This document shows, in pieces, positions 12,943 to 60,000 of a DNA stretch of 64,000 nt. The notes under the pieces are model-generated. The model was not told where the DNA came from. It ran no database searches and saw nothing but the letters and a program-made list of their open reading frames with translations. The translations under genes and the position numbers were made by a program. This stretch comes from Ascidiella aspersa (Eukaryota): NCBI GenBank assembly GCA_963924565.1, contig OZ004614.1, positions 23,808,001 to 23,872,000 on the forward strand, given 5' to 3'. Every line of letters begins with the position of its first letter. The first letter of the stretch is position 1.

Positions 12943-14503
12943 TCAGTTAACTGCTTTGTACATGAGGGATGCCTCTGTATGAATAGGTGAGAGGTTCAAT
13001 AGGGGCTTTTTCCCGTCTTTTGATCCACGTAGTCGCCATATCGCATCACCTTTAGTGTGGAAAATCCGGTTGCCGTAAGGTGGCGCTGCGCATAACGCGA
13101 AGCTACAACCGAGGCCACATAATCGCATTCGCTGCGAGTTGCAGCTTGTATGCATGCCGCTCCAAAAAATGAAAATAGACCCGAATTGAGGAATTTTTTA
13201 CCAGTCGCGCCCATTATTAGCCAGTAGATCTTTTTCGCTTTTAACTCCTTGAAGACATCCGCTGTGAAATAAATATTATACACTCGAACATTGTAAATAT
13301 GTCATCTAAAGATATCTGATAACATTCTATTCCTATTTCCTCAAACAAGCAAAATAAATGAAATGAAAACGTTCAAAGGTAGTTTGTTTCCGATTATTAA
13401 GCTGGAAAGTTCAGTTACTTGAAGTTTTTAATCTACCGTTGTTTGATAAATTTGCCTTTTTTCATTTTATGAATAACTACGTTGGAACGCAAATCATGGT
13501 TAAAGTTCCTATGCTAATTTGTGTAAATGGCGCCGTATTTGTCTAATTCTAAATAGAGGAATCAGGTGGCACTGTATAAAGACAAATTGTATTGTATTCT
13601 CGACAAGCTTTCACACAACCGTGCTTCATTAGGTCAAAGTAAACCAGATTTATATGGTCTACAAACGTCACATTTCTACTTTGACCTAATGAAGCACGGT
13701 TGTGCGAAAGCTTGTCGAGAATACAATACAAATTGTCTTTATACAGTGCCACCTGATTCCGCTATGTTAATTTGATATCGGATCGTCATTGATACCACCC
13801 TAATGTCGGACGAGTCCCGATACTACCACTTGGCATAGGTATCGTCCCCGACACGATATTATCAAACGTCCCGAGTGTCATTCGAGATAAATTATACTGC
13901 AGCACAACTCTATTACCAATGTTTGGACTGTTTACCATTTCTTAAGATGTTATTACTATTTAAATCTAAACATCAATTTTGTCAAAAATAGTACATTCTA
14001 AACATTTGTTTCTCAATGAAGGCAATTCTTCTTGTTTACTTTGGTAGAACTTTTACACTTTCATCAATAGAATAACGCTACATACCTGACATGAATCGAA
14101 CAAACTCATTCATAGACTTTGCCTCTTCGTTCAAGTCTTCACATTCGCTTTGGTATTCCATAAGTGCCGTCCCACTTTGTAGAACTGTATTTATTTCAAA
14201 GGCAACGGGCTCTCCTGTTTCTTTGATAAAAACGCCAAAAGAAAAACCTTCTCCAATATGCTTTTCAATTCGCTTTTTATCTATTTTGAAACCCATTTCG
14301 GGGTTTACCCGGAAAATCTGTCTCATCGGGTTTTGGCCGCTAAAATTTTTTTCAAAGAAATCTTCGACGGTATTTGAGTCTTCCTCGTTAATGATTCTGC
14401 AAACACAGTCGGAAATCTTGATGCCTGAATGTACCCCTCTTTGAAATCGCATCAAATTGCACGAAAGTCGACCGTGTAGGTTTTCAATGAAAGGTAGCCG
14501 CAT
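12943..14503 (-). CDS. Insect-type AANAT-like (dopamine N-acetyltransferase family) GNAT; exons 14503-14086 and 13261-12943, frameshift at about 13008-13014
   Basis: RIINEEDSNTVEDFFEKNFSGQNPM (cf. FF.DEPL), SFGV..ETGEPVAF, SRYAQR..GFSTLKVMRYGDYVD. The family C-terminus KPLLNLSPIHTEASLMYK is in the -1 frame. Phase-1 GT-AG intron 14085-13262; possible 5'UTR donor near 14719. Confidence 0.75.
13552..13766. mobile_element. Near-perfect palindrome in the AANAT-like intron; each arm carries a hammerhead with core CTAATGA
   Basis: Arms of about 85 bp around a spacer of about 35 bp; TTTGAC-CTAATGA-A-GCAC-GGTT-GTGC-GAAA-GCTT-GTCGAG; same family as 51343. Confidence 0.85.
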
Positions 14504-25776: not shown

Positions 25777-28700
25777 TTACAAAGCCGTTGTGAGCGATTG
25801 TTCGCCTTTAGACGAAGCATCACCATCGTAATTAGCTTCGTATTCCAAGTTGTTTTCCACCTTTTGGGGCTTTCCTACGCCTATCGCACACTTCTTTTCT
25901 TCATCTCCCACTTGAGCCCCGCTCTCGTATTTGTCGTAAGGCACTCCGCACCAAAGTAAGCGCCGAGTTTCAGCGGGAATCCATTTGAAAACCACGTGGT
26001 CGAAGATTGGAATGGTGACACCACGTGGAAGTTTGCTCGGCTGCTGGTAACCTGTCGCGAAATATAGTAAAGCAAATTTAGGATTAACTGCTTAGCTAAC
26101 TTCATATAGCATCCAAATTATATAACCAATATGATAAATATAAACCTAAAAATGTCAATAATTTCAGAAAATTTGAGAGTTTACAGAACAACTGATGAAG
26201 AGAATGTCGAACAATGTATAATTAAAGTAACCATTACCAGTGAAAAACGTGACAATGTGTCCAACAACAAGTGCAACACAGAATCCAATGATGCCATACA
26301 TAAGATAAGAAACAGAATACAATTCACTAATTGGAGGTCTGTAAGGGGTTGAAGATGTTGTGCTTTGCAAGAAGTCTGCAAAACAACAAGATTGGACTGC
26401 TTCAGCATTTAGATATTTGCTTAATGTAAAACGACAATATTAGGCTTCGGTATTGAATTTTTCGTTTAAAATGCCGATTTAATAATTGTTAGTAAATAAT
26501 GAAGTATCATATGGTAATTAATGCGTTGGGGTGCAGCCACCAGATGGCAACAAGCATTACAGAGTATGTTGACTGTTCATTAAATAGCGAATGATTTACA
26601 AATGTTCTGCTATAAGTTTAACACCAGTTGGGTCAGTTGTCAACCTGTTGTCAGCGTAGAAGAGGTCACGGTTGCCGTTGAATTGGGAACGACGCATTGT
26701 TCTGTGCTTAAGGCAAGCGCCCTAAGGAAGTGTGCAGCGGGAGGGTAAATGGTGCTGCCGATGTAAATCCACATTCCCACCGAAAAACCGCTTAAAGTCC
26801 CGGCTAATGCTCCCTGAAAAACATTCGGCTTTTAAATTTAAACCAGGGCTGCGAAGTCAGTTAAGAACAACGTGATTCCGAATCGGATTGCAGTCATAAG
26901 AGCGAGATAAGAACCACATCAACGTCGGATTAAAACAAGTTCGGAATAAGGCAAAAATGCGGCTAATACCTGAAAGTCGTAGTACCGTCTATATTGGAAT
27001 AAGTTCTAAACAATTTGGAATAAGACCTAAATGGTAAATTCCGGCCTAAAAAACACTTCAACTAATCCCAAAACCCAACCTTAGGTACATCACAAAGTCC
27101 CGGCTAATGCTCCCTGAAAAACATTCAACTATATTAAGGTTATACTATAGGGCTGCGAAGCCCCTCGACAGCGGAGTAGACATTAATGTCCAGTACCCTC
27201 GATTCCCACAAAATAAATCAAGTTGTTCGAGCTCCGAGACCGGCTGTAAATTGTAACCGTGCATTCCACCTTATTCCACCTATCAAGTAATCAGAATGGG
27301 TTGGTATACAGCCATCAATTTGTATGGATGTTGCATGATGACTGATCCAGTCACAAACTTAGGTAGAAAATATACTACCCTTTGCTATTTCACTTCTATG
27401 TTTTACAATACATGGCCTTAGCGGTTCTGAACTTGCTACTGTAATTTTAGTGACCCGAGTCTCGAGTCCTGTGTCAGCCTATGGTTCATTATAATCAAGG
27501 AATGCATTTTGCAAATAATGACCATGTAACGCGCATGGTGTCTGTAACCGTATATAAATCATGAATTATCATTTACTCTTTAAACTTCTTTTTTCTCTTA
27601 TTCAACAACTTGCTGCTTTTCCAATTATATAAACATATGTTATACACATCGGCGACTTACCCAAGAATTGCACCAGGGAAAGGCCCATCCCATTGTAAAG
27701 AGGGCCAAAATTGGTCCGGATGAAGTACCGCTGAGACTTAACGCTGCGTTTAAGACTCCGCCGAGATTCGAACCCAAGGCTGCCATACCCAGGCAGCAAG
27801 CGCCGAAGAACACCACCAGAATCTAAATCCATAACTGTGTTTTCATTGGACAGCAAAAACTGTACAAGACAAATTTGGCTTTAAAACCAGTTTGGGGGTT
27901 CGTTGCTAATGTAAAAGTAAGACAGCAAGTTGTAAAAGGGCTATCATCAAAATTTCGTAACCTTTTATTTGCGGCAAACTAAAAACAGTGATTTTGTTTT
28001 TGTTTTTTATAGCAAGCTGTAAAATAGTGATCACCGATGATATTGCTGAGCGATAATATAACAGCAAAACTTTGCGACCCAAGTGTGTTCGTTAAATGTT
28101 TCGTAAGAAAAAAAATATATATATATAAGAAATATTGTGGCTGAGCAATACTGCTGTAAAAGAACATGACAAGAATTTTAAGAAAAAAGATGTGTGATAT
28201 TTTGAACAGCTGATTTCAGATTCTTGGTGTTATCGTATTAATCAGCGACAGTAATAATAAAACACGAGCTTTCTTTAAGGCATATACTTGACACAAAACC
28301 ACCGATGAAAGGGTAAAATACCTTTGAAACCAGGACTGACATCTTTTGCGATAAATTCTTGTGCGGTTTGATGAAGTCGTCCAACACGACAGCGGCCAAT
28401 GCGTTTATGCCAGACGAAACAGTGCTGTAAAGGTATTGTAAAAACCTTGTTTTTTATAATGACTTACCTAACTCACTGTAAGCATTCGTTGTATGCTTTG
28501 TGCTATTCAGTGATCCATTAGTACCACAAAGCTTTACTTAAAGCTCATTGTCGCTTGTCTTCAAATTTCAAAACATACCTTGCAGCTGATGAAACGAGTT
28601 TTTCTCTATGTTTACTACCCAGTTTAATTGGTAGTGAAGCGCATCGCAAAGGTTTTGTGTCGAATATTAACAGTTTACAAAATAAAAATAAGAGTTTACT

Positions 28701-33408: not shown

Positions 33409-33504
33409 TACAGCCATCGTTATAAATAAATGTTGTTACCGGGCTTGGTAATAATAATAATAATAATAATAATAAATGAATAGAAATCCTTTGGTAATTG
33501 TAAT

Positions 33505-33560
33505 TGTTAATCAACGTTTCAGCAACCTACAGCACTAACATCGCCTTCTTCAGACTGAAT
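33505..33560 (-). ncRNA. Degenerate minimal hammerhead motif; duplicated copy at 34888-34943
   Basis: CTGAAGA-A-GGCGAT...GTTGCY-GAAA-CGTT; stem I is poor. Confidence 0.5.
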
Positions 33561-34376
33561 TACGCCAAATTTCTTTTAAAGCAGCCCTACATTTGTTTGA
33601 ATCGTAATTTACTGTTAAATGCCATAGTATACATCCAAAACGAACGAACAGAGGGTTACGAGTTGAAAAGAATATTAGCTGATTAATAGTTCCACTATTA
33701 CGCGTCATACTTAACCAAAGAATAAGAAGCTAAAAACTATTTCCTTTTTGGCTAGTTACCTCTCCAAAGTAAAACGATTCATTGGAACGATATTCTATTT
33801 GCTTCTATTTTACCAGGAATCCCTAAAGGGCAATTCTTTTCATCCGACATTTCAACTACAAATCAAGCAAAATGCATTCAATTTTAGATTTGATGGAAAG
33901 CGCGAGATCAAACGACAAACTAGGCGTGTCAAGTTTGGGTTTATATCAGCACTAAGCTAATATTTGCGCAAAGTATTTTGCTTTGTTGTTATACGTGCTA
34001 ACTAATTAAATTCATCTTGTGTAGGATTGCGAAACTTCGTCGCAATGTTAACATTCAAATAATTAGCGAAACATTATTATTGAAATTATAAGCACACGAA
34101 AGAGATCTGAAACCATTTTGAATTAGTTGCTATTCCTGTGAATTTTACTGGCTCTACTTTTCTTACTAAATTAAAACAAATGATCGCAAAGCAGTGAAAT
34201 TATGATAATATATATATTTGTAAAAGCAAAATTGTGTATTTCAAGTGACCTAACATTTGTTAACACTCACAAACGTCATAAAGTTAATGATCTAGATTGA
34301 AGACAACAGTGAGAAATCAATGTGTTATAAGCAGATCTCGTACCTTAAAATAGACCAGCTTTATGTCTTTTTAAGC

Positions 34377-34806: not shown

Positions 34807-35956
34807 GTTTCAGAGATCGATATACTTTAATAAATAAATGTTGCTACCAGGCAATAATAAAAAACACATCCTTTGGTAATTGTAATTGTTGACAAACGTT
34901 TCGGCAACCTATAGTATTAAAATCGCCTTCTTCAGTCTGAATGACGCCGAACGCTCATATACGGGTGAAAATTTATTTTAAAGCAAAGAAACTTTCCTTA
35001 CATTTGTTTAAATCGCACTTTACTGTTAAATGCCATAGCATAGGGCCTACATCAAAACGGACGAACAGGGAGTTATGATTCAAAAAAAATATTAGCTAAA
35101 ATTAATAGTTCCACTAATACGCGTGATACTTAACCGAAGAATGAGAAGCAACAAAACTATTTCTTATTTGCCTGGTCCTCTTCATACTAAAACGATCCAT
35201 TGAAACGATGTTCTATTTGCTCATATTTTACAAGGAGTTCCTAAAAGGCAATGCTTTAATTCCGACATTTCAAATACAAATAAAGCATAAAGCAAAATGC
35301 ATTCCACTTACATTTAAGGGGAAATGCAGGATCAAACGCCAAACTAGGCGTCAGACAACACAGGTCAGGTTTGAGTTTATATCGGGTTTAAGCCAATATT
35401 TGCGGAAAGTCTTTTGCTTTGTAGTTATACGACTGATGATGGTCTGTGGTTAAGGTCGTAGAAAAGCAATATTTGTCATAAAATCTGAGCAACTTAGATG
35501 CATTTTGACTAGGTTGTGTTTAGTGCAGGAGAGAATTTAGCAAATGCCGACTTTGTAACTTCGCATATATATTGACATTTCACGTTTAATCTGTGGATAA
35601 GTTTTATATGTTAGAAGTCGAACTACTAGTTTGTAGTTTATATTTCAGCCAGGTTTTGTAGTTTTAAATATTTAGAGTTTTCCACCCTTGACGTGGTTTT
35701 TGGGAAAATATTATTTTATCAATCTAATATAGCTGAGACTTTCAATACTTTACATTTTACTCCCATTCAGATTCCCGATATGTTACACAAGGATAACCAC
35801 AATCTTATTCATTTTGCAGAAGGTTTGGTCACCTGTAAAACATTATTTTGTGTTTTTGATTATACTTATAAATTAATTCACTGCTTTGTGCTTACTTTTT
35901 AATTTCGTAAGCACCAAAGAGACAGTTAAAACCATAAGTATAGGATCGAATTTAAA

Positions 35957-38900
35957 ATGGAGGAAGTCCAGCGATCATTGAGAGCTTTGGATTACGTTGT
36001 GTTCGGAGGACTCTTCCTTGTTTCCGCTTCCATTGGAGCCTACTTTGCCTACAAGTCTCGTAACAAATCTGCTAGTAGTGATGATTACTTGAGGGCTGGA
36101 AGAAAGATGCACGCCATCCCTGTTTCTCTTTCCATAACTGCTACCGCTTTGTCCGCAATAACTGGTATACGTTATTTACCTAATTATATATCAAAATGGT
36201 TTAAAGTTTTAGTAAAACGAGGTAAGAATATCAAAGCCCATGCAGAAGAGTCCTTAGAATCAGTGCCTTACCTTTATGTTGAAAATGAATAAAGAGATAT
36301 TCGAAATGTATGGGCTTTGATATTTTTACTACGTCTTACTTATATTTAAGTGCATAGGTAGGTCTAGTTACAGTTGGTAGTAACGGCAGTCTATTCGTCA
36401 CAAAAATAAGTGTCGTGTGCAAGGAAATGAAATAGGAAATAAAACCGTAATATTAGAATTGATTTGCAGGATTCATTTTGCACACTTTTAAGTATTTTCA
36501 CCTTAACATAAGTTTGCGTTTGCTTTTTCGCATGATATACGTTAATAAAAACCGCGGTAAAATTGCTTCAGATTAAGGTTATACACGCTTCATCAGTTAT
36601 AACTAATTAGGGAATCACAAAAACAGGATTTATGTTTCCCTTAGTAGGGCATCTGTTATCAGGTAGTCCACACAAGGCAGTATTCTGTGTTGAATTTCAG
36701 TTATCGGAATTCCGTCAGAATTCTACATATTCGGCACAATGTTTGCTTGGTACAATATCACGGCTGGCCTGGCAGCAATTGCTATTTCCGAAATCTACGT
36801 TCCACTGTTCTATAGAAATCGAATCAACAGCAGCTACGAGGTAAGTTCCCTCACTCACTCACTTCACGCCTTCACGCACTCACGCACTCACGGCACTCAC
36901 GGTTCCTTTCTTGGTCATGTCCTGTCGCTCTTGGATCTAACCCGTTTATCTTTTAGTATTTGGAAATTCGCTTCAACAAAGCGACTCGGATCATGGCCGC
37001 CACGATATTCACCATACAAAACTTCGTCAACATGGGAATCGTCATTTACGCGCCATCCTTGGCTCTTAATGCAGGTAAGCACGCCTATTTTTTTATGATT
37101 GTCTTAACTTGCAGTGTTGCAATGACTTAGCTTATGTGCACCTAATCACTGTTTTCAAATGACTTTGTTTGGACTTAAGCGTTGGCAAAAGTAAGTCGGA
37201 ACGTTCCGAAATGTGTTCGGTAACACAATTGCTGTCGGAACAGCGTTCCTATAAGATTGTTTTAGGTACGCCATAACGGTAAACAAAGTGTTCCCTTATA
37301 CCAAACTCATGGATTTTTCACTATAATGGTGTATGTTTCAAACCTCATAATCTAAAGAACAAATTCGAGTTTAACTGACTCATTTTTTATTTTAAAACTT
37401 CGTCTAAGGGTTTTATTTTAATACTTGTCTGTTTGTCCAGTAACTGGTCTTGATATATGGGTTTCGGTTGTTCTTACCTGTGCTGTTTGCACGTTCTACA
37501 CTACATTGGGCGGTTTGAAGGCGGTCATATGGACTGATGTCTTCCAGTGCATAGTGATGTGCCTAGGGTTCGTTGCTGTGATCATACAAGGCTGCATAAA
37601 GTTGGGAGGGATGAGTAATGTGTGGGCCATCGCTGAACAACACGGAAGAATAGACTTTGTACAGTGAGTTTAAAAATTTTACTGTTTATGTGAGATAAAC
37701 TGAAAAAAATTTTTTTTTGAGTTTATGTCAAAATAAATTTTACTGTTTATGTGAAATAAACTCGCTGAATGTTCTTTGGAAGTTTCGAGTTTGATCCCCG
37801 TTACCGACACACCTTCTGGTTGATGATATGCGGAGGCACGATGGGCACAGTGTCCGGCGGTGGAATCTCATACACTTCTGTGCAACGAATTCTCTCTTGC
37901 AAGACAGAGAAACACGCAAAAGCGTAAGAATTGTCATCTTGGGTTTTTTGTGTTTCCAAAAACATATATTTATATAATGTGAAATGCGAATCAAAGTTAC
38001 TCTCGGTTTTTATGTTTTATAATAGTTCCTATAAATTGGATTATCAAACTATTTTGAAATGCATGCCAAACATATTTACCTTATTTAAAAAAAATCAATA
38101 TAATGTTATTCAGAACAAAATTCCAAATATATAGTAAAGTGGGGTTCTCTTTAAAGTATTGGATATAATAAACCATCTTAGGGTGTGCAATTACTTAATA
38201 TTTAATATTTTATATTTGCATAGCAGCAACGCTTTACATTTTTATTATAGGGCGGTTTACATGGGTGCTTTTGGAAGGACTATTTTATTACTGTTGGCAG
38301 GCCTCGCTGGCCTTGTAATGTTCGCTTATTACGTCGACTGCGACCCTTATTCTGCGGGCTGGGTGTCATCCACCGACCAACTCATGCCATACTTCGTCAT
38401 GGACATTCTCTACTCCACGCCCGGGCTGCCTGGAGTATATTTGTGCAGTGCTTTCAGTGGAACTCTAAGGTTAAGTCAGTCTTCAGGTTTATACATATTG
38501 TAATATGCACGAACTCAGGAAATAACGACCATCGGATTTAATTATTTACAGTTAGATATTTTAATTAAATTCAAGTAGTACACTTTGGCGTCAGTCCAGA
38601 CTTATATAGTTTGAAAAACTTTTGAATTGTTGCGAAACCGTTACAATGCTCAGCTGAGTGAATAAATTGTTGAAAGTGAACTCTGTACACTATAGTCAAC
38701 ACATAACCATGTCGATGCGCTTCGTATAGTCTGGTTAGTAAAAATTGAGAATCAACTAGACCAGGGTGGTCCAACTTCTTTTCATCGCGGGCCAAAAACA
38801 AGGTTTTTTTTATCTTGCGGGCCAATGTTGTTTTTAAATTGCAAATCTTAGGCATATTGCTGGCAAATTATACATAGTTCATGGCATATACTAACTTTAT

Positions 38901-41900
38901 GAATATATACCTGTTTAGTTACGGTAGTTATGAAATAATTTCAACACCAAAAAATTAAAAAAACAAAAATTGAAGTGATATTGCCAGGTCAGTTCGCAGG
39001 CCAAAAAAGCTGAACTCAGTTGGACCACGCTGAACAAGACAGTTAACATTGGAATTCAAACACAAAAGGCATTGTGGCGCAACTGTTAAATCGTTTTATC
39101 AGCTGGCACGAAATTTAAAGACACAAACAACAATGAACTGCAAGTAAAGCTTTGTTGTGCTAATGGATCACTGAATATAGCACAAAGCATACAACTAATG
39201 CTTACAGTGAGTTAGGTATAATACAATGTAAATGTCAACGGTAAGTCAACAAGGTTTTTATAATACCTTTGCAGCACTGTCTCGTCTGGCATAAACGCAT
39301 TGGCCGCAGTCGTGTTGGACGACTTCATCAAACCGCACAAGAATTTATCGCAAAAGATGTCAGTCCTGGTTTCAAAGGTATTTTCCTCCTTTCCTCTATG
39401 CTTTTTTGTCAACTATATGCTTTAAATAAAGCTCGTTTTTTAAGATTACTGTCATTGACCAACACGACTCTATGCGATGACAGCATATTGAATTCAGCTC
39501 TTTTTAATTAAGATTCTTGTCACGTTCTTTTTTAAAGCAATGATTCTCAACCAATGGGTAGAGACTCAAAATTGTGTCGCCGTTTGATTTTACTGGTTTG
39601 GCGACCTCAGTGATTTTATATGCTTAGATTTACTGAGATTAGTTCTCAGCTAGACAAGATTCATAATTAGGGCGATTATTTTTCAACCTTAAATGAAAAA
39701 TTTTAACAAATTTTGACCTAAAAATTTTTATTTTGATAAAATTTTGATCTATTAGAAATGCATTGATTTAAACAACGCTTTGTTGTTGAAGGACTGAAAT
39801 AAAGTCTTGTCGTCGTCAACGGCAAATACTGTTCAATACTTTTGTCCAAATCAAAGATGAACAACTTTATCAAGCAAAAACGTATTGCTTTAACGAATAA
39901 ATAATACAGTTAAAATGTTGTTGGGTATAACTCGAAACTTATTTTTTTGGTAACATTTTAACTTAACGACAGTTTCAAACAGCTGAACACCATTTAACAA
40001 CTTGCTGCCTTACTATACTTTTGGCAGTTTGGGGCTTGATTCTCACCTCAAAACAGTTTAAAGGGCATGTTTGTCTTGTACAGTATATGTAGTCCACTGA
40101 AACACAGTTATGATTGTAGATTCTGGTGCTGTTTTTCGGCGTCTGCGGTTTGGCTATGGCAGCCTTGGGTTCGAATCTCGGCGGAGTCCTAAACGCAACG
40201 TTAAGCCTCAGCGGTACTTCATCCGGACCAATTTTGGCCCTCTTCACAATGGGATGGGCCTTTCCCTGGTGCAATTCTTGGGTAAGGGTCGCCGATGCGC
40301 ATAACTTATATTTAAATAATTTGGAAAAGTGACAAGACGTGAAAAAAGAAAAAACAAAAGTTTGAAACAAGATAATTCATGAGTTTTATTCGTTTAAAGA
40401 CAACATTCCCCATCCGCATTACATTTTGTTCATTACTGGCAAAATAAATTCCTTGCTTATAATAAAACAACAGGTTGATTGTATTCAAGTAGACTGGCTT
40501 ACAAACTCGGGACAGGGACTCAAGTAAGCTTACTGTGGGCTACGAGTCCTTATGCTTTTGTTTACACAGTAACAAGTTTTAAACCGCTAAGTCACGCACC
40601 GTAAAAGAGGAATAGCAACGGAACCTATATTTCCTACCCAAGTATTGTGACTGGGTCAGTTGTTTATACGTCCTAGTTTGGCACCAGATTTTACCACTGT
40701 TTGGGGTTATGGGTAGTGGGTGGGGCTATAAAATGGGTTAGGGTTATAATTATTAGGGAGGTTAGTGATGTACCTAGGGTTGGGTTTGGGGGTTAGTTGA
40801 AGTGTTTTTTAGGCCTGATTTTACTATTTAGGTCTTATTTCAAATTGTTTAGAGCTTATTCCAATATAGACGCTACTACGACTTTTAGGTATTAGCCCTT
40901 ATTCCAAACTTGTTTTAATTCGACGTTGATGTGGTTCTTATCTCGCTCTTTTGACTGCAATCCGATTCGGAATCACGTTGTTCTTAACTGACTTCGCAGC
41001 CCTGGTTTAAATTTAAAAGTCGAATGTTTTTCAGGGAGCATTAGCCGGGACTTTAAGCGGTTTTTCGGTGGGAATGTGGATTTACATCGGCAGCACCATT
41101 TACCCTCCCCCTGCACACTTCCTTAGGATTCTTCCGCTAAGCACAGAGCAATGCGTCGTTCCTAATTTAACGACGACTGTGACGTCTTCTACGCTGACAA
41201 CAGGTTGACGTTCGAATTGTTTGTTTAGTTACAGTGTGATTCGCATCTAGCTGACCTAGTTTTAAACTTACAGGACTACATTTGTAAATCATTTGTTATT
41301 TAAAAAACTGTTAACACCCTAGGATGTTCGTTGTTTTGGTTTACTCCAACACATTTATTAATATACGATAGTTCATTACTTACTAAAAATTATCGTCGGC
41401 TTTCTATATGAAAAATACCATGTATTGTTGCTTTGCATTACGTAAATATCGAAATGCAAAAACAGTCAAATCTTGTTGTTTTGCAGACATTTTACAAAGC
41501 ACAACATCTTCAACCCCTTACAGACCTCCAATTAGTGAATTGTATTCTGTTTCTTATGTCATGTATAGCATCATTGGCTTCTGTATTACTCTTGTTGTTG
41601 GACACATTGTATCGTTTTTAACGGGTAATTATTTCTTATTACAATTATACATTCTACGGTATCCTCTCATTTAGCCTTTCCGCAAAAAACTCAATTTTTT
41701 TGCAATTATTGACATTGTTAGGTTAATGTTTAACATATTGGTGTATAAACTATTGCTGCCAGGCTTAATATATAACCGATTGTTGCTCATCCAACAGTAT
41801 TATATAATCAATCGACGTTTCGACGTCTTCATCAGGATAATGACAAATTTTGTTATTTGTCGCTTTATAAGGGATCTGTTTTACATGATACGTCAGTATC

Positions 41901-42405
41901 CTGATGAAGACGTTCTATATAGGACGTCGAAACGTCGATTGATTATATAATACTGCTGGATGAGCAACACTCGATAATATATTGGTGTGTAGTGTGCATG
42001 CAAATAAAAGTTAACTGAGCAGTTAATCCTAAATTCAATCGCTTTAGAGTTCATTCTACTTGATATTTATAACTCTTTAACAATAAACGGTTTTGCCTTC
42101 ACAATATTTTTTACTGTTATTTCACGACAGGTTTCCAGCAACCGAGCAAACTTCCACGTGGTGTCACCATTCCCTTCTTCGACCACGTGGTTTTCAAATG
42201 GATTCCCGCCAAAACTCGGCGCTTCCTTTGGTGCGGAGTTCCTTACGACAAATATGAGAGCGAGGCTCAATTTGCAGATGAAGGAAAGAAGGGTGAGATT
42301 GACCTAGGAAAGTCCACTAAGGTGGAAAACAACTTGGGGTACGAAGCTGATTACGATGATGATGCTTCGTCCTATGGTGGACCGTCGTTCACAACAGCTT
42401 TATAA
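35957..42405 (+). CDS. SLC5A5/8/12-like Na+/solute symporter, paralog B, 631 aa; exons 35957-36164, 36701-36840, 36957-37074, 37441-37663, 37783-37923, 38251-38469, 39275-39377, 40120-40281, 41035-41203, 41487-41624, 42131-42405
   Basis: Same motifs and exon lengths as paralog A; GT-AG introns; intact frame. Confidence 0.93.
38762..39032. mobile_element. hAT-type MITE
   Basis: TIR CAGGGTGGTCCAAC / GTTGGACCACGCTG; TSD AACTAGAC / AACAAGAC. Confidence 0.85.
41892..41944 (+). ncRNA. Minimal type-I hammerhead ribozyme inside palindromic insertion 41745-41988
   Basis: GTCAGTATC-CTGATGA-A-GACGT(tctatatagg)ACGTC-GAAA-CGTC^GATTGAT: intact core, palindromic ACGU stem III, GUC cleavage triplet ending at 41936. 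Confidence 0.8.
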
Positions 42406-43870: not shown

Positions 43871-46800
43871 ATGAATAGTATCGTTCATAAGTCTGAAAAC
43901 TTTATTGAAATCATTCAGTTAAGTGTTTCTTCAAAGGTAAAGCAATTGGATCCCGAAAAAATTGAAAGGGCTTTTGAATGGGCCCAATACTTTGAAAAGG
44001 TGTGTTAATAATAATGGCGCTCTTTCACTATTGTACGTAAAAATTAATAAAAAAAAAAAAAAAAAACTTTTTTCAAATGCCGCATACCACAACACATATT
44101 GTTTGGGTTAGGGTACGGGTTAGCGTTTGGTTGAGGGTGGGTCAAGTTATTATTAACAATAAACATAATATTACTTGACCCACCCTCACCCAAACGCTAA
44201 CCCTAACCTAAACAATATGCGTTGTGGTATGCGGTATTATTTTGTTTTGTTTTTTGCATAACTTTTCATGTACATAAGTGAAAGAGCGCCATAATAATTT
44301 ATTTTTACTCCTAGAATGTGTTTCAACAACAGAATTTTGCCCTTCAACAGATCACATAATACCGACGATAAAGTTCTATAATTTAAAAAAGGTTTATTCG
44401 AATTGAGATAAACTTATGATGCCATTCATTTATATGACAAAATGCATACTTATATTAAAATTTATACACCTTGCTGACTGATTTGTGTTTAAAGCAGTGC
44501 GCTTCTTAAGCTATGATTTATTTTTACTTGTCCAAGTTTATACTTTTTCGACGCCAGTAGAAATCTTACCTCATTTTCGTCCGTGTTTTTTATTGCTTGC
44601 TATTATATTTATTCTCCCATATTAAGTTCTTCCTTAAAATTTCACTTTTGACAACTTGTTTTGTGACTCTAACAAATGTGGCAGGATTCTAGACGAAAAA
44701 AACAGCTTTATTTTAACATTTATAGTTTTAAACTTAAGCGTGAAATAGTCTAATTGAGATGTTTCATGTTTTTGTTGTTTCATGGAGGTCTACATCTTAT
44801 CTACCAATTTAAGGAATTTGGGCTGTATGCCAGATAGGAATAATTTTGCAGCTTAAAATTGCGTGGCTGTAATAACATTTCTGCCTATATGGGCTGTTGG
44901 CAGCAACCCTAAGGGTTGGTTGTAATATTAAATTTAGTTTCCCAGAATTTAGCCCTCTGATTTAGCCCTTGGGGGCCACAGAAGTACCTAATTAGTTTAG
45001 TAAATACCCTCTTTTATATACTTAAAGGCCTTGTTCATTCTGGTTTAACATAAAATGTTGGTACAACCACAGGTCCATGAGAAATTTAAAAGCAACCCTG
45101 CCATGCTCCAACAGTTGGATGAAAAGTTGAAATCTCTTGTTTTGGACAAGAAACTTAATTTGGGTAGTTTGTCTTTCGGTTTTGATTCTTTGGAAAAAGC
45201 TTCCTCACTTTTATACCAGGTAATAAACCAATTTTAGCAATAAATAAGGTAATGCTTAACTTAATGGCATTAATTTATTGTTTTAAAATGGCTTGAATGG
45301 ACCTAAATATTTTGGGTAGAATGACTTACTTCATTTTATTATTGGTAAAAATTATTTTACTTGACCTTTGAGAAATTTAGCAATTGATTTCAATTAAGAT
45401 TAAGTGTTTTAATATAATCTTATTTTGGCAGAATCTGAGTAATTACTTCTTTTGTTTTAGTAAACCTATTTAGCTTGCAACCTGTCTTTGTTTTGGTCAA
45501 GTAAAATAATGCTAGAGGTGGAATCATGAATTAATTTTTTGCGTTGAAAAAAACAAATTGTTAATTACTTGCCTTATTATGGCAAAAAAATCTTAACCAA
45601 CTCTTAAAAGCTTTTTCTCTTTTTTTTATTTTTTCTAAAAAAGTTCGCTATTTCTTGGTAGGAATTGAAGTTATTGCTTTGCTCGTAAAAGTCCACAACA
45701 GAAACGTCTTGAAATTAGACTTGCATTGGATAGGTAAGGTATTCACTTGGGCTTGACTTAAACTTGGGGTATTTTTTTACAAATTACTGAACATGGACTT
45801 TTCAACACTGAATTTAATATAAATATGAGAAACAATTGGTAAATACCAGAAGCGCTCAATCCCCAATTTCTGGTGGTTTGTGAAAAAACATTAATGAACC
45901 TTAAAACAGGGATTACTAATTTTATACATGGATTTATCAATAATAGTAGCTTGAATTTGCCTTGCCAACGCAACCTGAACTCCTATTATTATCCTAATTG
46001 TTTATTATTTGTACATAAAAATGGGTACTTTTAATAGATGTACATTTACTTTCATAGAATTTTCTGTCAAACACTTACTTTCCACCAAATCATCTGCCTT
46101 TATTGTATAAAAAGGCTTTCCGAGACATGTCAGGAGATCCTGTTGATAATATGACTTTTATACAGGTTTGTTTGTGTATTGTCTTTCATGATATGTTTAT
46201 TATAATGTCAATATCATTAGTATACCGAAAGCAGACTCTTCACCGAATCTGTAGATCAATGATGCAAGCAGGACAGACTAGAAAAACAACTGGCCTGCAG
46301 TGAGGTTCGAACTCACGACCTCCGGTCAAGCCGGGACCGTCGCTCTACCAACTGAGCTATGCAGGCTCAGAAGGGAGCGAGTCGACACACATATGTGTGT
46401 TCATGTTTCAATGTCAATATCACTGTTTTAAAGCGACAATAAGTGTAACCGTTTTTGTTTTTAGGATATGGTCAGTTTGGTAGAGGAGCGTGCAGCATTA
46501 ACCATTCTCTCTAATGTGCAAGGTAAGACCATAACAATTTTATAGTTTTATATTTTGACCAATTAAATGCCAGAACATGTGTATAAAACTGTAAGAAAAT
46601 TTCGTAATTTAATTTTTGTTTTGTTCATTTCATTTTAAATCAACATAATTAGTTTTTGAATGATTTAATTTAAAATATGTGCATTAGGAACTGTGCTTTA
46701 ATTGCTTGCTGGTTTATTTAGAAACCTGTGAACGATCTCCTTTGAGCAATTTCAATAGAAGGCTGAGTCCAGCTACAAAAACAGCGGCAAGTTTATTTCG

Positions 46801-50000: not shown

Positions 50001-53000
50001 TAATTACAGTATAAAACTTGCGAAAGAATAATAGTATGTTTATCGGAGGTGAAGGAGATTATTTACGTTTATTTTAGACGTGAAAGGAAACAAAGTCCAA
50101 ATTCCAAGTATTTACTTGTCATTGATTTAAATCAGTTTTAAGCCAAGGCTTTAGGATCAAATTAAATGCTGTGCACTCTGTTAAAAAATTATTCCATTTC
50201 TAGCACTATTTCCTCGTTGCTGTAAAACAGATGACAAGCAAACGTTTGTACTCAAAATCGACAATAGGTGTCCTAATATTTCCAGAATGTCATTGGTTAG
50301 ATTTTTAGAACATTTTATTTAAATTGTCTGAAGTTGAAGTGAAATCGTTTGTTCAAAAGACTTTGGTCAATTCAAGTCGCAAAGAATGACTGAAGTCTTT
50401 ACAACATTGTAAAGTTTCCGGAAAAGTATCTTGAAATAATTCGGCCTTTTTCAGCTAACGGCATCCCTTATAAGGTTATATAGTTTGAGGCACCTTTTGT
50501 TGAATTTTAGTTAAGTATATTGCCAAAATAGTCGCAATACACTGAGTAAAACAACACACATCTACTGAAAGCTGATTCAAGAATAATTTTAATTATCTAT
50601 TGGCTCCCTCGAGCATTAGAAGCGGCACCCCACCCCGGTTGTGAACCGCTGACATACCTATACTGAGTAGTGGCCTAAATGTGAGGTGTGGCTATTATTG
50701 TTTCCGATTAGACATCTGGATATTCAAATCTGTTTAACTTGAACGACCCGGTTGATTAAAGTAACCGACTTAGATGCACAATTCATCACTCTAATTTTGG
50801 CGGAACTCAGTTAAACTTTATAAGCGTTTATTTGGCCTTTACCTCTTGGTCGCAAAAGAGCAACATCGATTTGGTGGATCTGGGAATGGTCACGTGATAC
50901 ACACCGCTGGTCCGACCGCCTGCTGCGTAAATTTCCGCACAATCTGAAAAATAGTGAAAATTCGGAAATATTCACTGCGATGGCATCCTCCCTAATATCA
51001 TGCATTGTTTTGCCTTAAAGTTTACCTGCCTTTCTGCTCTTGGTTTCTTTACCGAATTGTTTTGAAGTGCGTGTGATTCTTAGATTTTTACCTTTATTAA
51101 AATTATTTATAAAATCAGAATTAGCAGTGAATTAAAGTTTGCACTTTTGACGAATTATAAAGAAACCAGATTCTTAGCAAGATAACTAGTTGTTATAGTG
51201 CCACTATAGAGATCACTTGGATTGTTTACTGGACTGCTGAATGCATATAGCATTTAACACGTGCGTTACGCTTGGTTGATTTGTTGTTCTACTTGCGGTA
51301 GCTTGCATAGCGTGCTAGTTTTGCAAAAACTTTTCACTTATACTTTGACCTGATGAAGCACGGTTGTGCGAAAGCTTGCCGAGAATGCAGCTGTTTACAA
51401 AAATTAGGTCTATATGTAAGTTACATCTCACGCTTTGTATTTTGGGTATAGACTCAACGTCACCACAGTTAATTGAAGAACATATAGATTAGCGAATATA
51501 CTGTTAACAACATTTGTTAGCTGAAAGCACTCTCCAAAAGCGAAATAACATTGTCTAGCGGACGATCGCAAATCTCAACCCTGAAATTGGAACTGCTCTA
51601 TACTTTCGTGATATGTAGTTTTCGTTTTTTAGGGTCAAAGTTACCGCGAACGGACGTTAAAACTGTTCTTATCCGACAATTCGACAACTTAATTAAATAT
51701 TGTATGTGAGAGAGTTTTTAATGTTCCATTGTGCTGTAGGGTTGTTTCTCTACGTAGCCGTAGCACTGCATATGTGATAGTGGAAATCACCTTGACCCTT
51801 GCAAGATAAATGTCGACCTTAATTCCTGATCAGAAACAGCAAAATACTCTAGCAAAGCTAGTAATTTAGGTCAGACACTTTTTAGAGATGTTAAAAGATA
51901 TAGCCAGCACGCATATATAATTATATTTCGCCAGCACAGGCATCGTCAGTATATCTTAATATATATAAGAATATATATTGTATTATATATATATATATCT
52001 TTTAACATCTATAAAAAGTGTCTTAACTTAAGTACTAGCTTTGCTAGAGTATTCTACTATTGCATGTAACTATTAACTAATTCCACAATGCAAAAAGAGC
52101 TATAGTTGGGATCATAGCCCGAACCAACCTGTTCCGGTTATAACGTGAGGACAGGGCTCTGGTGCCTTGCTCCCCACCGAGCATTTATTCCTCAGCTGTT
52201 CGCTGCGGGCTGCAACCTGTTCCTGCATTTCCTCAACTCGAATTACGGATTGTTGAAGCTCTTCCACACTGGATAAAACATTTTTAAGTGTTGCTTTTTG
52301 CCAAACCTTAGTGAAAATTGCCCTGGCGCCTGTTCAGGCTTGGATAACTATTTATATTAAAATAAGCTTGATAAAATTGTCGTTCAAGTTAACGTTTTAT
52401 CGTGATGTAGTTTATATTAGCTATTTTTCTGTTAACAAACTAGATTTAGCAGTAATTTAAGGCATGGCTTCGCATACTTTTCAGTCTGCGACCCCTTTCA
52501 CATTACTAAAATACTCCCCGACAGTTTAAAACATAACATTTTCCGATCTCCACTTTGGCACGCATTTGCCGAAGTAATGTGCATTTAAAGGGTTTCGTTT
52601 GCATTAAGTTCGCCATTAGCATGTCAAACCAGAAAAATTAGTAATTTAGAGATTGAACACTTTGTATAAAAAAAAACGGATGTACTCACGACACCTTGAA
52701 CTCGATTAGCGTACCCAAGTTTGGGAAGCTCTGATTTAAGGTATTTTTAGGCATTATGTCGCGAACAAATAATTCACCACAGCCCGTAGTTTGGCGAATT
52801 CTGTGATATTCGTTCCAACCAACCTGTCAGCATTTTCGTTTTTGATGCGAACAAGTTGTTCCCTCCGTTGTTGCAGCTCAGTTAAAAGATCCTGCTGGCG
52901 GGAAATCTTGTCTGCGTGAAATATAAGGCTTTGTTGTCCGACATTAAAATGTGACGCTTGTTGATAATTCAGTAAGTGAGTAAGTCGGTCTAGCTCGGTG

Positions 53001-57051: not shown

Positions 57052-60000
57052 TTATGAAAAGTTGCTGGGTCGTATTTTCATCTTTGTTCCTTTGATACGG
57101 ACTTTTCCTCTATTCAACGTCGGCCAAGAAATCCCGGTTTTGTGCAGATTTCCTGCAAATTAATTGAAACAATGTTCACAAAACTCAGATTGACCAGACC
57201 TACGCCACTTAGGTAGCGCCTTTCCAAGGGAGTAATACGTTTTGGTTTATTGTTCTAATTTCACCCGGTTTCTTTCTCACTTACACAAGTAATTTTGCTC
57301 AGATAGATTTATTATAAATGTTTCACACTAGTATTATTGCGTAGGCTACGTTCAGCGATTTTTTATTCACACTGCAGGAACGGTCCCGGCTTGACCGGAG
57401 GTCGTGAGTTCGAACCTCACTGCTGGCTAGTTGTTTTGGTAGCCTGACCAACTCCATAGTTATTAACAATTAAACTCTGTTTTTTGCAATTTCTTGCCTC
57501 TTCGTCTGTCCCAGTTCCATCTTCCGTTCAGGTTCGCTTCTCCATCGCACGTGTTATGCCACCAACCACCCGACCTGCGAAGACCTACTGACAAAAGAGA
57601 TTTGCTGTTTTTTGGCTGAGTTTGTTCTTTTTCAGTTTGTGCGTGTTAGAGTGGATGGAAACGATTTTCACCAGGGCCAAATTTTAAAACTGATAAGGCC
57701 GCAAACTGTTAATTAAATTGTAAATGTAAAATGGCATATATAGTTGAATATTTTACAACCACGTATTGTGAGTGGTATGACACGCCTATTGAGTTTGTTG
57801 CTGAATATTACCCTTTTTAGTTATGTAAATGGGTTAAATAGAGGCTGCGGAGTCCCGAGTCCGGCGTACGCATGCGCAATACAAAATTTTGAAACTGATA
57901 ATGCCACACAATTTTAAAAGTGGAATAGCATATTGTGGAATACTTTTCAATCAAGCATTGCGGGTGGATGAAATATATGACATCTATTCAGTATAGATTG
58001 CTGAATATCTACCTTTTTTAGTTAAATAAATGGATTCAATACACTACTGGCACCGGAGTCCGACGTGCGCATGCGCAATACCAATTTTTTAAAGGTAGAA
58101 ACGCATATATGGTCGAATATTTTCCAATCACGTATTTTGAATGGATGAATTGGATGACACGCCTATACCAGGAAAAATATTTCACCACTCCCTTAAAAAT
58201 TAACCCCTTACCTTCACAGTCGTCAACCTTGTCTCGAGTCGCAAACCTTAGGTGGCCAGATGACCCCTGAGCCCCAAATGGGTCCCCTATTTCACCCCCT
58301 GGGTCAGCTACGAAGTCCCCGATCAAATCGAGTCGGTAGAAATCGCGTTTTCCTCCAACGCGAAACTCTCTGTTAAAATAAACAATAATTAAAGCTCCAC
58401 TAGGAGTCTAGAGATGTTGTTAGAAGGATAAGTGGTGAAAAAATGCCAGCGCTGCAATTGCTCTTTGGTAAGACATTGGGTGCTTCTTATTTATGTTTGA
58501 AGATTTTAAACGCTGCTCTGTTCTCGTTAAACGTAACAATTTTTGAAGTCGTAGGCCAAATATCCAGAAACAGAGCTTTACCTTCTTCATGTCACCTGCT
58601 CCCTAGTGTAGACATGCTGTCTGAGGCTAGGGTTCGCAAAAAAAACAAATAAAAAATGGATAAAAACTATGAGTATATTTGCATGTTTTTGATGGCCAAT
58701 GTTGATCATGATCATGTTTCTTTTGAGATAAAGAAATCCGGTTTCGTTGTTTTCTAGTTCGACTGATAAACTGTTAATATCATTTTTTGATATAGAAGAC
58801 TAAGCCTGAGCGAATTAAAGCATGTCGAGTTTTTATATGAATGCCACAAGTGGAAGATATAATTATTTTAATAGTTATTTCCCTGTGGTCTTACGATTGC
58901 ATCCGCTTCTAACCAGCTTAATCCGGTAGTAAGCGTACTGTAATTATCACCTGCAGTTAAGGTTGTTTTATACATTTCAGCGCGACCAACACAAATCCTA
59001 ACGCGACTCTTTTACAAAAAAACATGTGAACTTAAAAGACAGCATCACGCTGTGCGGGTTCTGGATTTTGTTTAAGGAACAATAAAGTGTTGAAGACATG
59101 ATATGGCATGAAATTGCGTCAAAACGCGATGTCGTAACACAAGTACCTTAAAGAAACCTGTTTTCCTCAGTCAAAGTCGAAACTCGAAAATATTGTTTTT
59201 TAAGGAATGTACAGTTTACAGTAATTGCGATTTTACAATACTCTGTGCACTAATGCAAGACATAAATATAAAAAATAATACGTCGCCATATACAGATTTT
59301 AATATTTTCGCGGCCCATAGTAAACGGTTTGGGACGCGATCTGCTATTTGCGACCCGCCCTGCTCTAACTCACCGGTATGTGATAGTTCTTGTTTGGTTA
59401 CTTGGCGAATCCAGTTCGATTTTGAGGTGCTGGTTTCCTTGTTGAGTCAATCTGAATTAAAAATGTGGTCGTGAAATTCAACAATTAGCTTATCTTAATC
59501 AGAACTAACAGTTAGTTAAGTGTTTTTGGCTATCCTGTACCCACTCATAAACATATTATTGATTGGAGGTTGTAGTAAGACGTTTTGAAACGTTCAGAAT
59601 GCTACCTACTTCTGTATGGGCTTCGATATTTTTTCTATGTGTTATTAATACTGTAAATGAAACGTAAGTGGAAAAGAGTTGTGCCGCAGTAATTGAGCTG
59701 TTGGAAGTTTTTTTTTCCAGGTTTGTAAAGTTGACTCATTTTCGAGCTGTTAGATTTAAAAAAACAAACATTTGCTTGTATTAGCGCCATGAGAAATGTG
59801 AACGTGGTCCAGGAAACACATGCAACTGTAAAAATTACGGGGTTTCAAGGACTAACTTTGAAAAACATTCCATTTTTTAAAGACTTAACTTGCAAAAATT
59901 CCTCTTTAAGCCGCACTTACGCAAATTTTCGCGGTTTATCATATCACTGCAAAAACAAAGTAATAAAATAAAGCGCACCCGTAAATGCTGGTGTGGTACA

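Follow-up and report, generated by a model that had tools for sequence, protein, structure and literature searches.

The paralogs and the insert in the last coding intron

The window, meaning the whole stretch of 64,000 nucleotides of Ascidiella aspersa DNA that was analysed, contains two divergent paralogs of a sodium:solute symporter (SLC5-type) gene, with paralog A on the minus strand and paralog B on the plus strand. Paralog B (35957..42405) has 11 coding exons, and eight near-identical splice solutions give an open frame of ~630 aa. Among the five exons scanned, exon 4 alone matched the Pfam SSF family PF00474 (E 9e-11). Considering that the open frame has 11 coding exons, the 506-nt intron at 41625..42130 is coding intron 10, the last of the gene, and it holds an insert at 41745-41983. 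The initial annotation stated that the insert is missing from the 186-bp intron of paralog A, and we confirmed this, as that intron (26052..26237, minus strand) has a single copy of the target, with the empty site at ~26116-26135. The site is also empty in a third paralog, C, on contig C1, which in this intron is more similar to B than A is (93% versus 82%) and shares with B ~70 further bases that are missing in A. Accordingly, as neither A nor the closer paralog C has the insertion, it postdates both paralog splits.

The tracts 37480-37930 and 40770-41205 of the window are near-identical to paralog A, introns included, and adjoin tracts of ~80% similarity, a pattern in the alignment that probably reflects gene conversion between the inverted paralogs. 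Further symporter paralogs lie at G000:C1:10930658-10933901 (L132) and on G000:C8 near 4.1 and 5.0 Mb, and the C1 copy carries a short duplication in the exon preceding this intron and may be damaged. Elsewhere in the window, an Rfam tRNA match (54 bits) was found at 46292-46366 on the minus strand, with a partial copy at 57380-57449.

The insert is flanked by direct repeats at 41735-41747 and 41979-41991, which differ by one mismatch and are spaced by 244 bases. The last three bases of the left copy are common to the element end, and the first five of the right copy are common to the tail-less arm described below. The initial annotation had described an insert of about 245 bp between direct repeats; the repeats and their spacing hold, and the duplication is probably 13 bases rather than 10. 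In paralog C, the single target copy continues ...GGTGTATAG, so that the target runs three bases further, and we therefore read the duplication as ~13 bases with one later mismatch.

Two arms lie head to head within these repeats. The tailed arm (41745..41853, minus strand) is the 5'-truncated 3' end of a Penelope-like element, ending at ~+103 from the hammerhead core, and its tail (41745..41766, minus strand) corresponds to the first codons of the element ORF (MPG..SLF in the tandem copies), based on L129 and L130, where the sequence passes from the tail into the ORF. This arm, which holds the full end of the element, is the antisense arm of the host gene. The tail-less arm (41847..41983, plus strand) covers element positions ~-52 to +81 and stops just 5' of the ORF start codon. 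The two meet at a short near-palindrome (41846..41856), and the stretches 41767-41827 and 41923-41983 are 93% complementary over 61 nt.

Both arms carry a hammerhead motif. On the sense strand of the intron, the initial annotation had noted an intact core, a long stem II, ACGU and a GUC triplet, and the coordinates bear this out. The motif (41898..41939, plus strand) is a minimal type I hammerhead with a three-pair stem I, the core CTGATGA at 41901-41907, an extra A at 41908, an eight-pair stem II at 41909-41928, GAAA at 41929-41932 and CGTC at 41933-41936; palindromic ACGU replaces stem III, and GUC at 41934-41936 places the predicted cleavage after 41936. The sense arm differs at five of 128 positions from its own subfamily majority. 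The minus-strand motif (41814..41838, core from 41835) has the stem II collapsed to GACGTC, as had been described, and we attribute the collapse to a deletion that removed 14 bases from between two GACGT repeats. In the genome, the collapsed arm matches a single place, this copy itself, so the deletion is private and a subfamily with a collapsed stem II was rejected. An Rfam scan of the window (E <= 1) gave no hammerhead among its eight matches.

The parent element and its hammerhead

Both arms of the insert are 3' ends, truncated on their 5' side, of a Penelope/Poseidon-type retrotransposon (RT + GIY-YIG). The initial annotation's reading called for related genomic copies, and these are present, with 197 exact matches of a 16-base hammerhead tag in the genome itself and 0 in the control. 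The tail has 232 exact genome matches, which are also shared with a sister family, and a DNA search of the genome gave 85 matches from the best 40 of 493 candidates. The sister family has an almost identical tail and different hammerhead flanks. Many longer copies have the same end preceded upstream by a GIY-YIG domain and then RT motifs. Pfam matches in these copies were in the expected order, with GIY-YIG at E 0.003-0.005 and RVT_1 at E 0.004 to 7e-5, all under the curated cut-offs. In L032/L129 and L130, RT motifs and then GVVY-YIG stand upstream of the same end, with broken frames in these copies. L130 is a tandem array with three units at a spacing of 2553 bases, and its tail continues directly into the ORF that follows, the layout of a pseudo-LTR; consequently, the tail is made up of the first codons of that ORF.

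By inspection of the translations of L032 and L033, no zinc-finger-like or cysteine-rich linker lies between the RT and the endonuclease. Such a zinc-finger-like motif is present in Neptune and Nematis according to PMC8557442, and the missing linker points to placing the parent in the Penelope/Poseidon clade, as far as these translated copies can indicate. Among the loci fetched there was no intact full-length parent, their frames being broken. A PDB sequence search with a related RT-endonuclease frame and a Pfam search with the L017 fragment each returned 0 matches, and a search for longer proteins returned one unnamed tick protein (34% identical). Our literature search on Penelope, ascidians and hammerheads found no paper, so the parent family may be unnamed.

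At least five further Penelope families carry the same minimal hammerhead (L043-L050, L141-L160). In the window, the minus-strand segments 33499-33565 and 34881-34947, in a duplicated stretch between paralogs A and B, are older ends of another Penelope family (like L048) that also carry a hammerhead. A 213-base palindrome at 13553-13765 has arms matching 51327-51389, with the CTGATGA...GAAA motif at 51350, and belongs to a different family.

In ten sequences from six families, the core columns (CUGANGA, GAAA, UH) are invariant except N in 10/10, and ACGT is invariant. At the same time, eight of 11 stem pairs change on both sides, and 90% of the cells are paired versus 21-48% in slid controls; the shuffle control for this covariation was lenient, as the six families are related. 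Considering that the core and ACGT are kept while stem pairs change on both sides, the hammerhead is real in the parent elements. It resembles the minimal type I hammerheads of metazoan Penelope-like pseudo-LTRs described by Cervera and De la Pena 2014 (PMC4209133) in its long helix II with an extra base before it, G-C closing pair, palindromic ACGU for helix III and opposite-strand motifs 100-700 bases apart. On the other hand, helix I has three pairs here and 4-5 there, and activity here is a prediction from the sequence. The hammerheads of that study were inactive as monomers and weak as dimers, and by analogy the present motif is predicted to need a partner for cleavage, via the palindromic ACGU.

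Folding predictions place the copy in a very stable hairpin. The fold of the insert has z = -15.8, with 0 of 200 shuffles equally stable, and the probability that the seven bases of the core are unpaired is 0.00 in the predicted folds of both the insert and the entire intron. The three pairs of stem I are disfavoured in the monomer fold (pair probability <=0.01). In the predicted intron RNA, arm pairing covers the whole core and displaces the base of stem II, and the prediction contained neither an ACGU partner nor an opening of the hairpin. When two hammerheads were cofolded freely, the result was an extended duplex and not the active dimer. The earlier suggestion that arm pairing keeps the ribozyme off thus agrees with the folding models, in which the core is predicted to be buried.

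Head-to-head insertions in the family and their origin

We scored 108 loci of the family, with 13 refetched or segmental-duplicate-like loci, eight loci of other families and the tandem array removed. The top BLAST hits, together with the first 100 among the 197 tag matches, supplied these loci; for this reason contigs C1-C5 dominate the survey, and pairs whose tailed arms are very short would have escaped it. Head-to-head pairs were found at 40 of the 108 loci, comprising 36 tailed/tail-less pairs (this insert included), four tail-less/tail-less pairs and no tailed/tailed pair. The expected number of two-tail pairs was 8.1, and 0 of 100000 permutations gave none. One locus that appeared to have two tails has in fact one tailed and one tail-less outer end, with a 13-base duplication. 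Three loci (L009, L082 and L085 on G000:C2) have a flank in common, representing one insertion copied together with its surroundings; in two of the three the centre is inverted and the other flank is foreign. As these loci are not independent, we recounted after removing L009 and L085 and obtained 35, three and 0 among 38 pairs. As read from such flanks and centres, these loci show that recombination, both inversion and ectopic exchange, can reshape the hairpins after insertion.

The ends of the pairs are regular in several respects. A duplication of at least 10 bases, with one mismatch allowed, flanks 32 of the 36 tailed/tail-less pairs, and in 30 of these 32 it measures 11-16 bases, 13 being the commonest length in the family; the allowed mismatch makes the lengths lean high. 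Mismatched flanks used as a control gave a median of eight and a maximum of 13, and four of the 36 pairs are without a clear duplication. Bases shared with the target at the outer junction average 2.6 at the tailed end (2.1 in the flank null, p 0.004) and 3.4 at the tail-less end (2.3 in the flank null, p 7e-8), a small excess that AT-rich sequence inflates. CA stands at the tail junction in 17 of 32 targets versus an 18% background. Within an insertion, the two arms disagree at 25 of 270 subfamily-marking positions (9%) versus 37% between insertions, and at the other positions they differ as much as unrelated arms do (4.8% versus 5.1%). Accordingly, one kind of RNA gave rise to both arms, which have since diverged independently. 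The data did not support two different RNA templates per insertion, as the most discordant pair, L009 (5/11), is a later recombinant.

From these data, we consider that the insert is very probably the dead stump of a Penelope/Poseidon-type element, in which two hammerhead-bearing 3' ends were laid head to head in one two-strand insertion event at a staggered cut. The arms are identical in kind to the ends of RT + GIY-YIG copies, the target is duplicated, the paralog sites are empty, and one arm is tailed and one tail-less. In the mechanism that we propose, the element endonuclease would nick both strands ~13 bases apart, and reverse transcription of the element RNA would be primed by each 3' end with the help of a few matching bases, in one case at the tail site and in the other ~25 bases upstream, just before the start codon. 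Both copies would halt early and then be joined at their 5' ends. The hammerhead would be cargo from the parent pseudo-LTR, where it is expected to cleave only with a partner via the palindromic ACGU. The priming steps of this model are drawn from the end points of the copies, and two-strand priming would fit the 36 tailed/tail-less pairs among 40 and the 0 two-tailed pairs.

The term twin priming comes from the L1 literature, and in our search on twin priming in Penelope elements nothing was on topic by title or the start of the abstract. In a more specific version of the model, the enzyme would act as a dimer, nick both strands at positions 11-15 bases apart and always combine one tail-site and one tail-less priming, each over 2-5 matching bases; we give this version an even chance. 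If it is true, the strict one-tail rule (0 of 40 two-tailed) would amount to evidence from the genome that twin priming is carried out by an asymmetric complex, and would define exact in vitro substrates.

According to PMC11167929, the Anolis protein cuts and extends both strands in vitro from two start sites, which fits the two-nick proposal, though initiation there took place at RNA sites without homology to the cut DNA. This Poseidon of Anolis (PAc) is similar to the present family in having two 3' end classes that match two internal starts, AT-rich targets and extension of both strands. It differs in that the ORF of the present family begins downstream rather than upstream of the cleavage site, at a distance of ~45 bases, and that the element ends have a few bases in common with the target. 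Inverted 5'-truncated copies with a one-sided tail are described in PMC8557442, PMC3846280 and PMC8969392, and opposite-strand hammerhead pairs in PMC4209133; how Penelope-like elements make inverted ends is called unresolved in PMC8557442. Pen2, Pen2a and Pen3a of Adineta vaga (PMC3846280; PMC8557442, Fig. 2 legend) are alike in their inverted ends, one-sided tail of early ORF codons and target duplication. Compared with these rotifer examples, both arms are here so short that only the tail is coding, the duplications are longer (11-16 bases versus 8-10), and the tail is shorter (~25 bases versus 30-40).

In a different, rather unlikely origin, the first cDNA snaps back at a short palindrome and is recopied, or an antisense RNA primes itself, as preferred in PMC3846280. 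The near-palindromic joint of this insert and the mostly equal subfamily alleles of the arms would suit such folding back, as would L162, where both arms share the same odd ORF-to-pLTR junction. However, folding back from the tailed cDNA requires the tailed arm to reach further 5', and among the 36 tailed/tail-less pairs the tail-less arm reaches further in 26 and the tailed arm in nine, with one tie, so that this version is disfavoured. Later flipping of the loop would shift the counts toward half, not below it, and the counts bear on the tailed-cDNA version, not on self-priming of antisense RNA. The tailed arm of this insert also has a deletion that is missing in the other arm, though it may postdate the insertion.

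In L162 (G000:C1:34704500-34705050), both arms link the start of the ORF to the base that follows the hammerhead cleavage site, through an 11-base near-repeat similar in sequence to that site. The junction occurs at one place only and may have arisen by a template jump or, with lower probability, via a 130-base circle. A second in-cis ORF half-site leading to such a circle was set aside, with 2/11 matches, both of them L162 arms, and the half-site is missing in the one other family for which 20 stretches yielded the start of the ORF.

The initial annotation had also proposed a discrete mobile unit that arrived after the gene duplication. There was indeed one insertion with target duplication into a site empty in A and C, but the insert is not a self-moving unit; it is a Penelope-like 3' end copied twice, and the centres differ among insertions. 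It is thus very improbable that a non-autonomous palindromic mini-element or retrozyme moved as a unit of ~245 bases. Short two-arm structures of about this size, with clean duplications, are numerous in the genome, as such a unit would leave; against this, the 5' end points form 39 different combinations in the 40 insertions, with the only combination found twice having a common flank as well, arm lengths grade from tens to >700 bases and reach into the ORF, the collapsed arm matched once in the genome, and the loci scored included no short tandem array of a retrozyme unit. The non-LTR retrozymes of bioRxiv 10.64898/2026.07.22.740005 are similarly short, non-coding, hammerhead-bearing and pLTR-derived, whereas the insert is inverted rather than tandem and is without a fixed repeat unit. 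A fixed unit copied as such, whether non-LTR retrozyme or MITE-like, was not observed here.

The ribozyme copy in its host gene

In the host pre-mRNA, the antisense arm would be made first, with predicted pairing over the core, and the insert would be spliced out with the intron. On these models, the ribozyme copy is probably silent in its host intron. The claim that this is the best-preserved hammerhead carries no functional weight, as the core is intact in 58 of the 103 arms spanning the motif; all eight stem II pairs are kept in six of the 103, the sense arm among them.

Contigs of runs X1 and X2 each cross one insert junction. Four X8 reads that skip the insert were considered as an empty B allele and rejected, as they carry the letters of paralog C (contig C1). 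At 95% likeness, no insert-skipping joint was listed in X8, X2, X4 or X5, with a thin X8 depth of ~3 in the unique part versus 4-7 in the flanks. As to expression, no RNA data set was listed as containing the sequence. In X9, 96% of the aligned reads continue into other sequence and the exon reads carry the letters of another paralog, so X9 is uninformative on B. One RNA run, a weak test, gave no pile-up of read ends as a sign of cleavage, and in such weak tests the reads gave no sign of cleavage, paralog B expression or an empty B allele.

Co-option of the ribozyme by the host to control paralog B, shut by arm pairing, is the least credible reading of all: the intact sense-strand motif, among the six with a full stem II, and the presence of the insertion in X1 and X2 and apparently in X8 would agree with it, but with one arm antisense the other had to be sense, an intact core is common, the sense arm has drifted at five of 128 positions, neither an ACGU partner nor hairpin opening is predicted, and both paralogs lack the insert. 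Nothing points to a regulatory role.

In summary, the insert is an ordinary footprint of a known kind, which the initial annotation described correctly, and its effect on the host gene is probably none at all. It is one of some hundreds of such footprints, and their tail counts, duplication lengths and junction matches narrow the models for inverted ends. For annotators, our study is a caution that such hairpins are retrotransposon ends, and not MITEs, miRNA precursors or host ribozymes.
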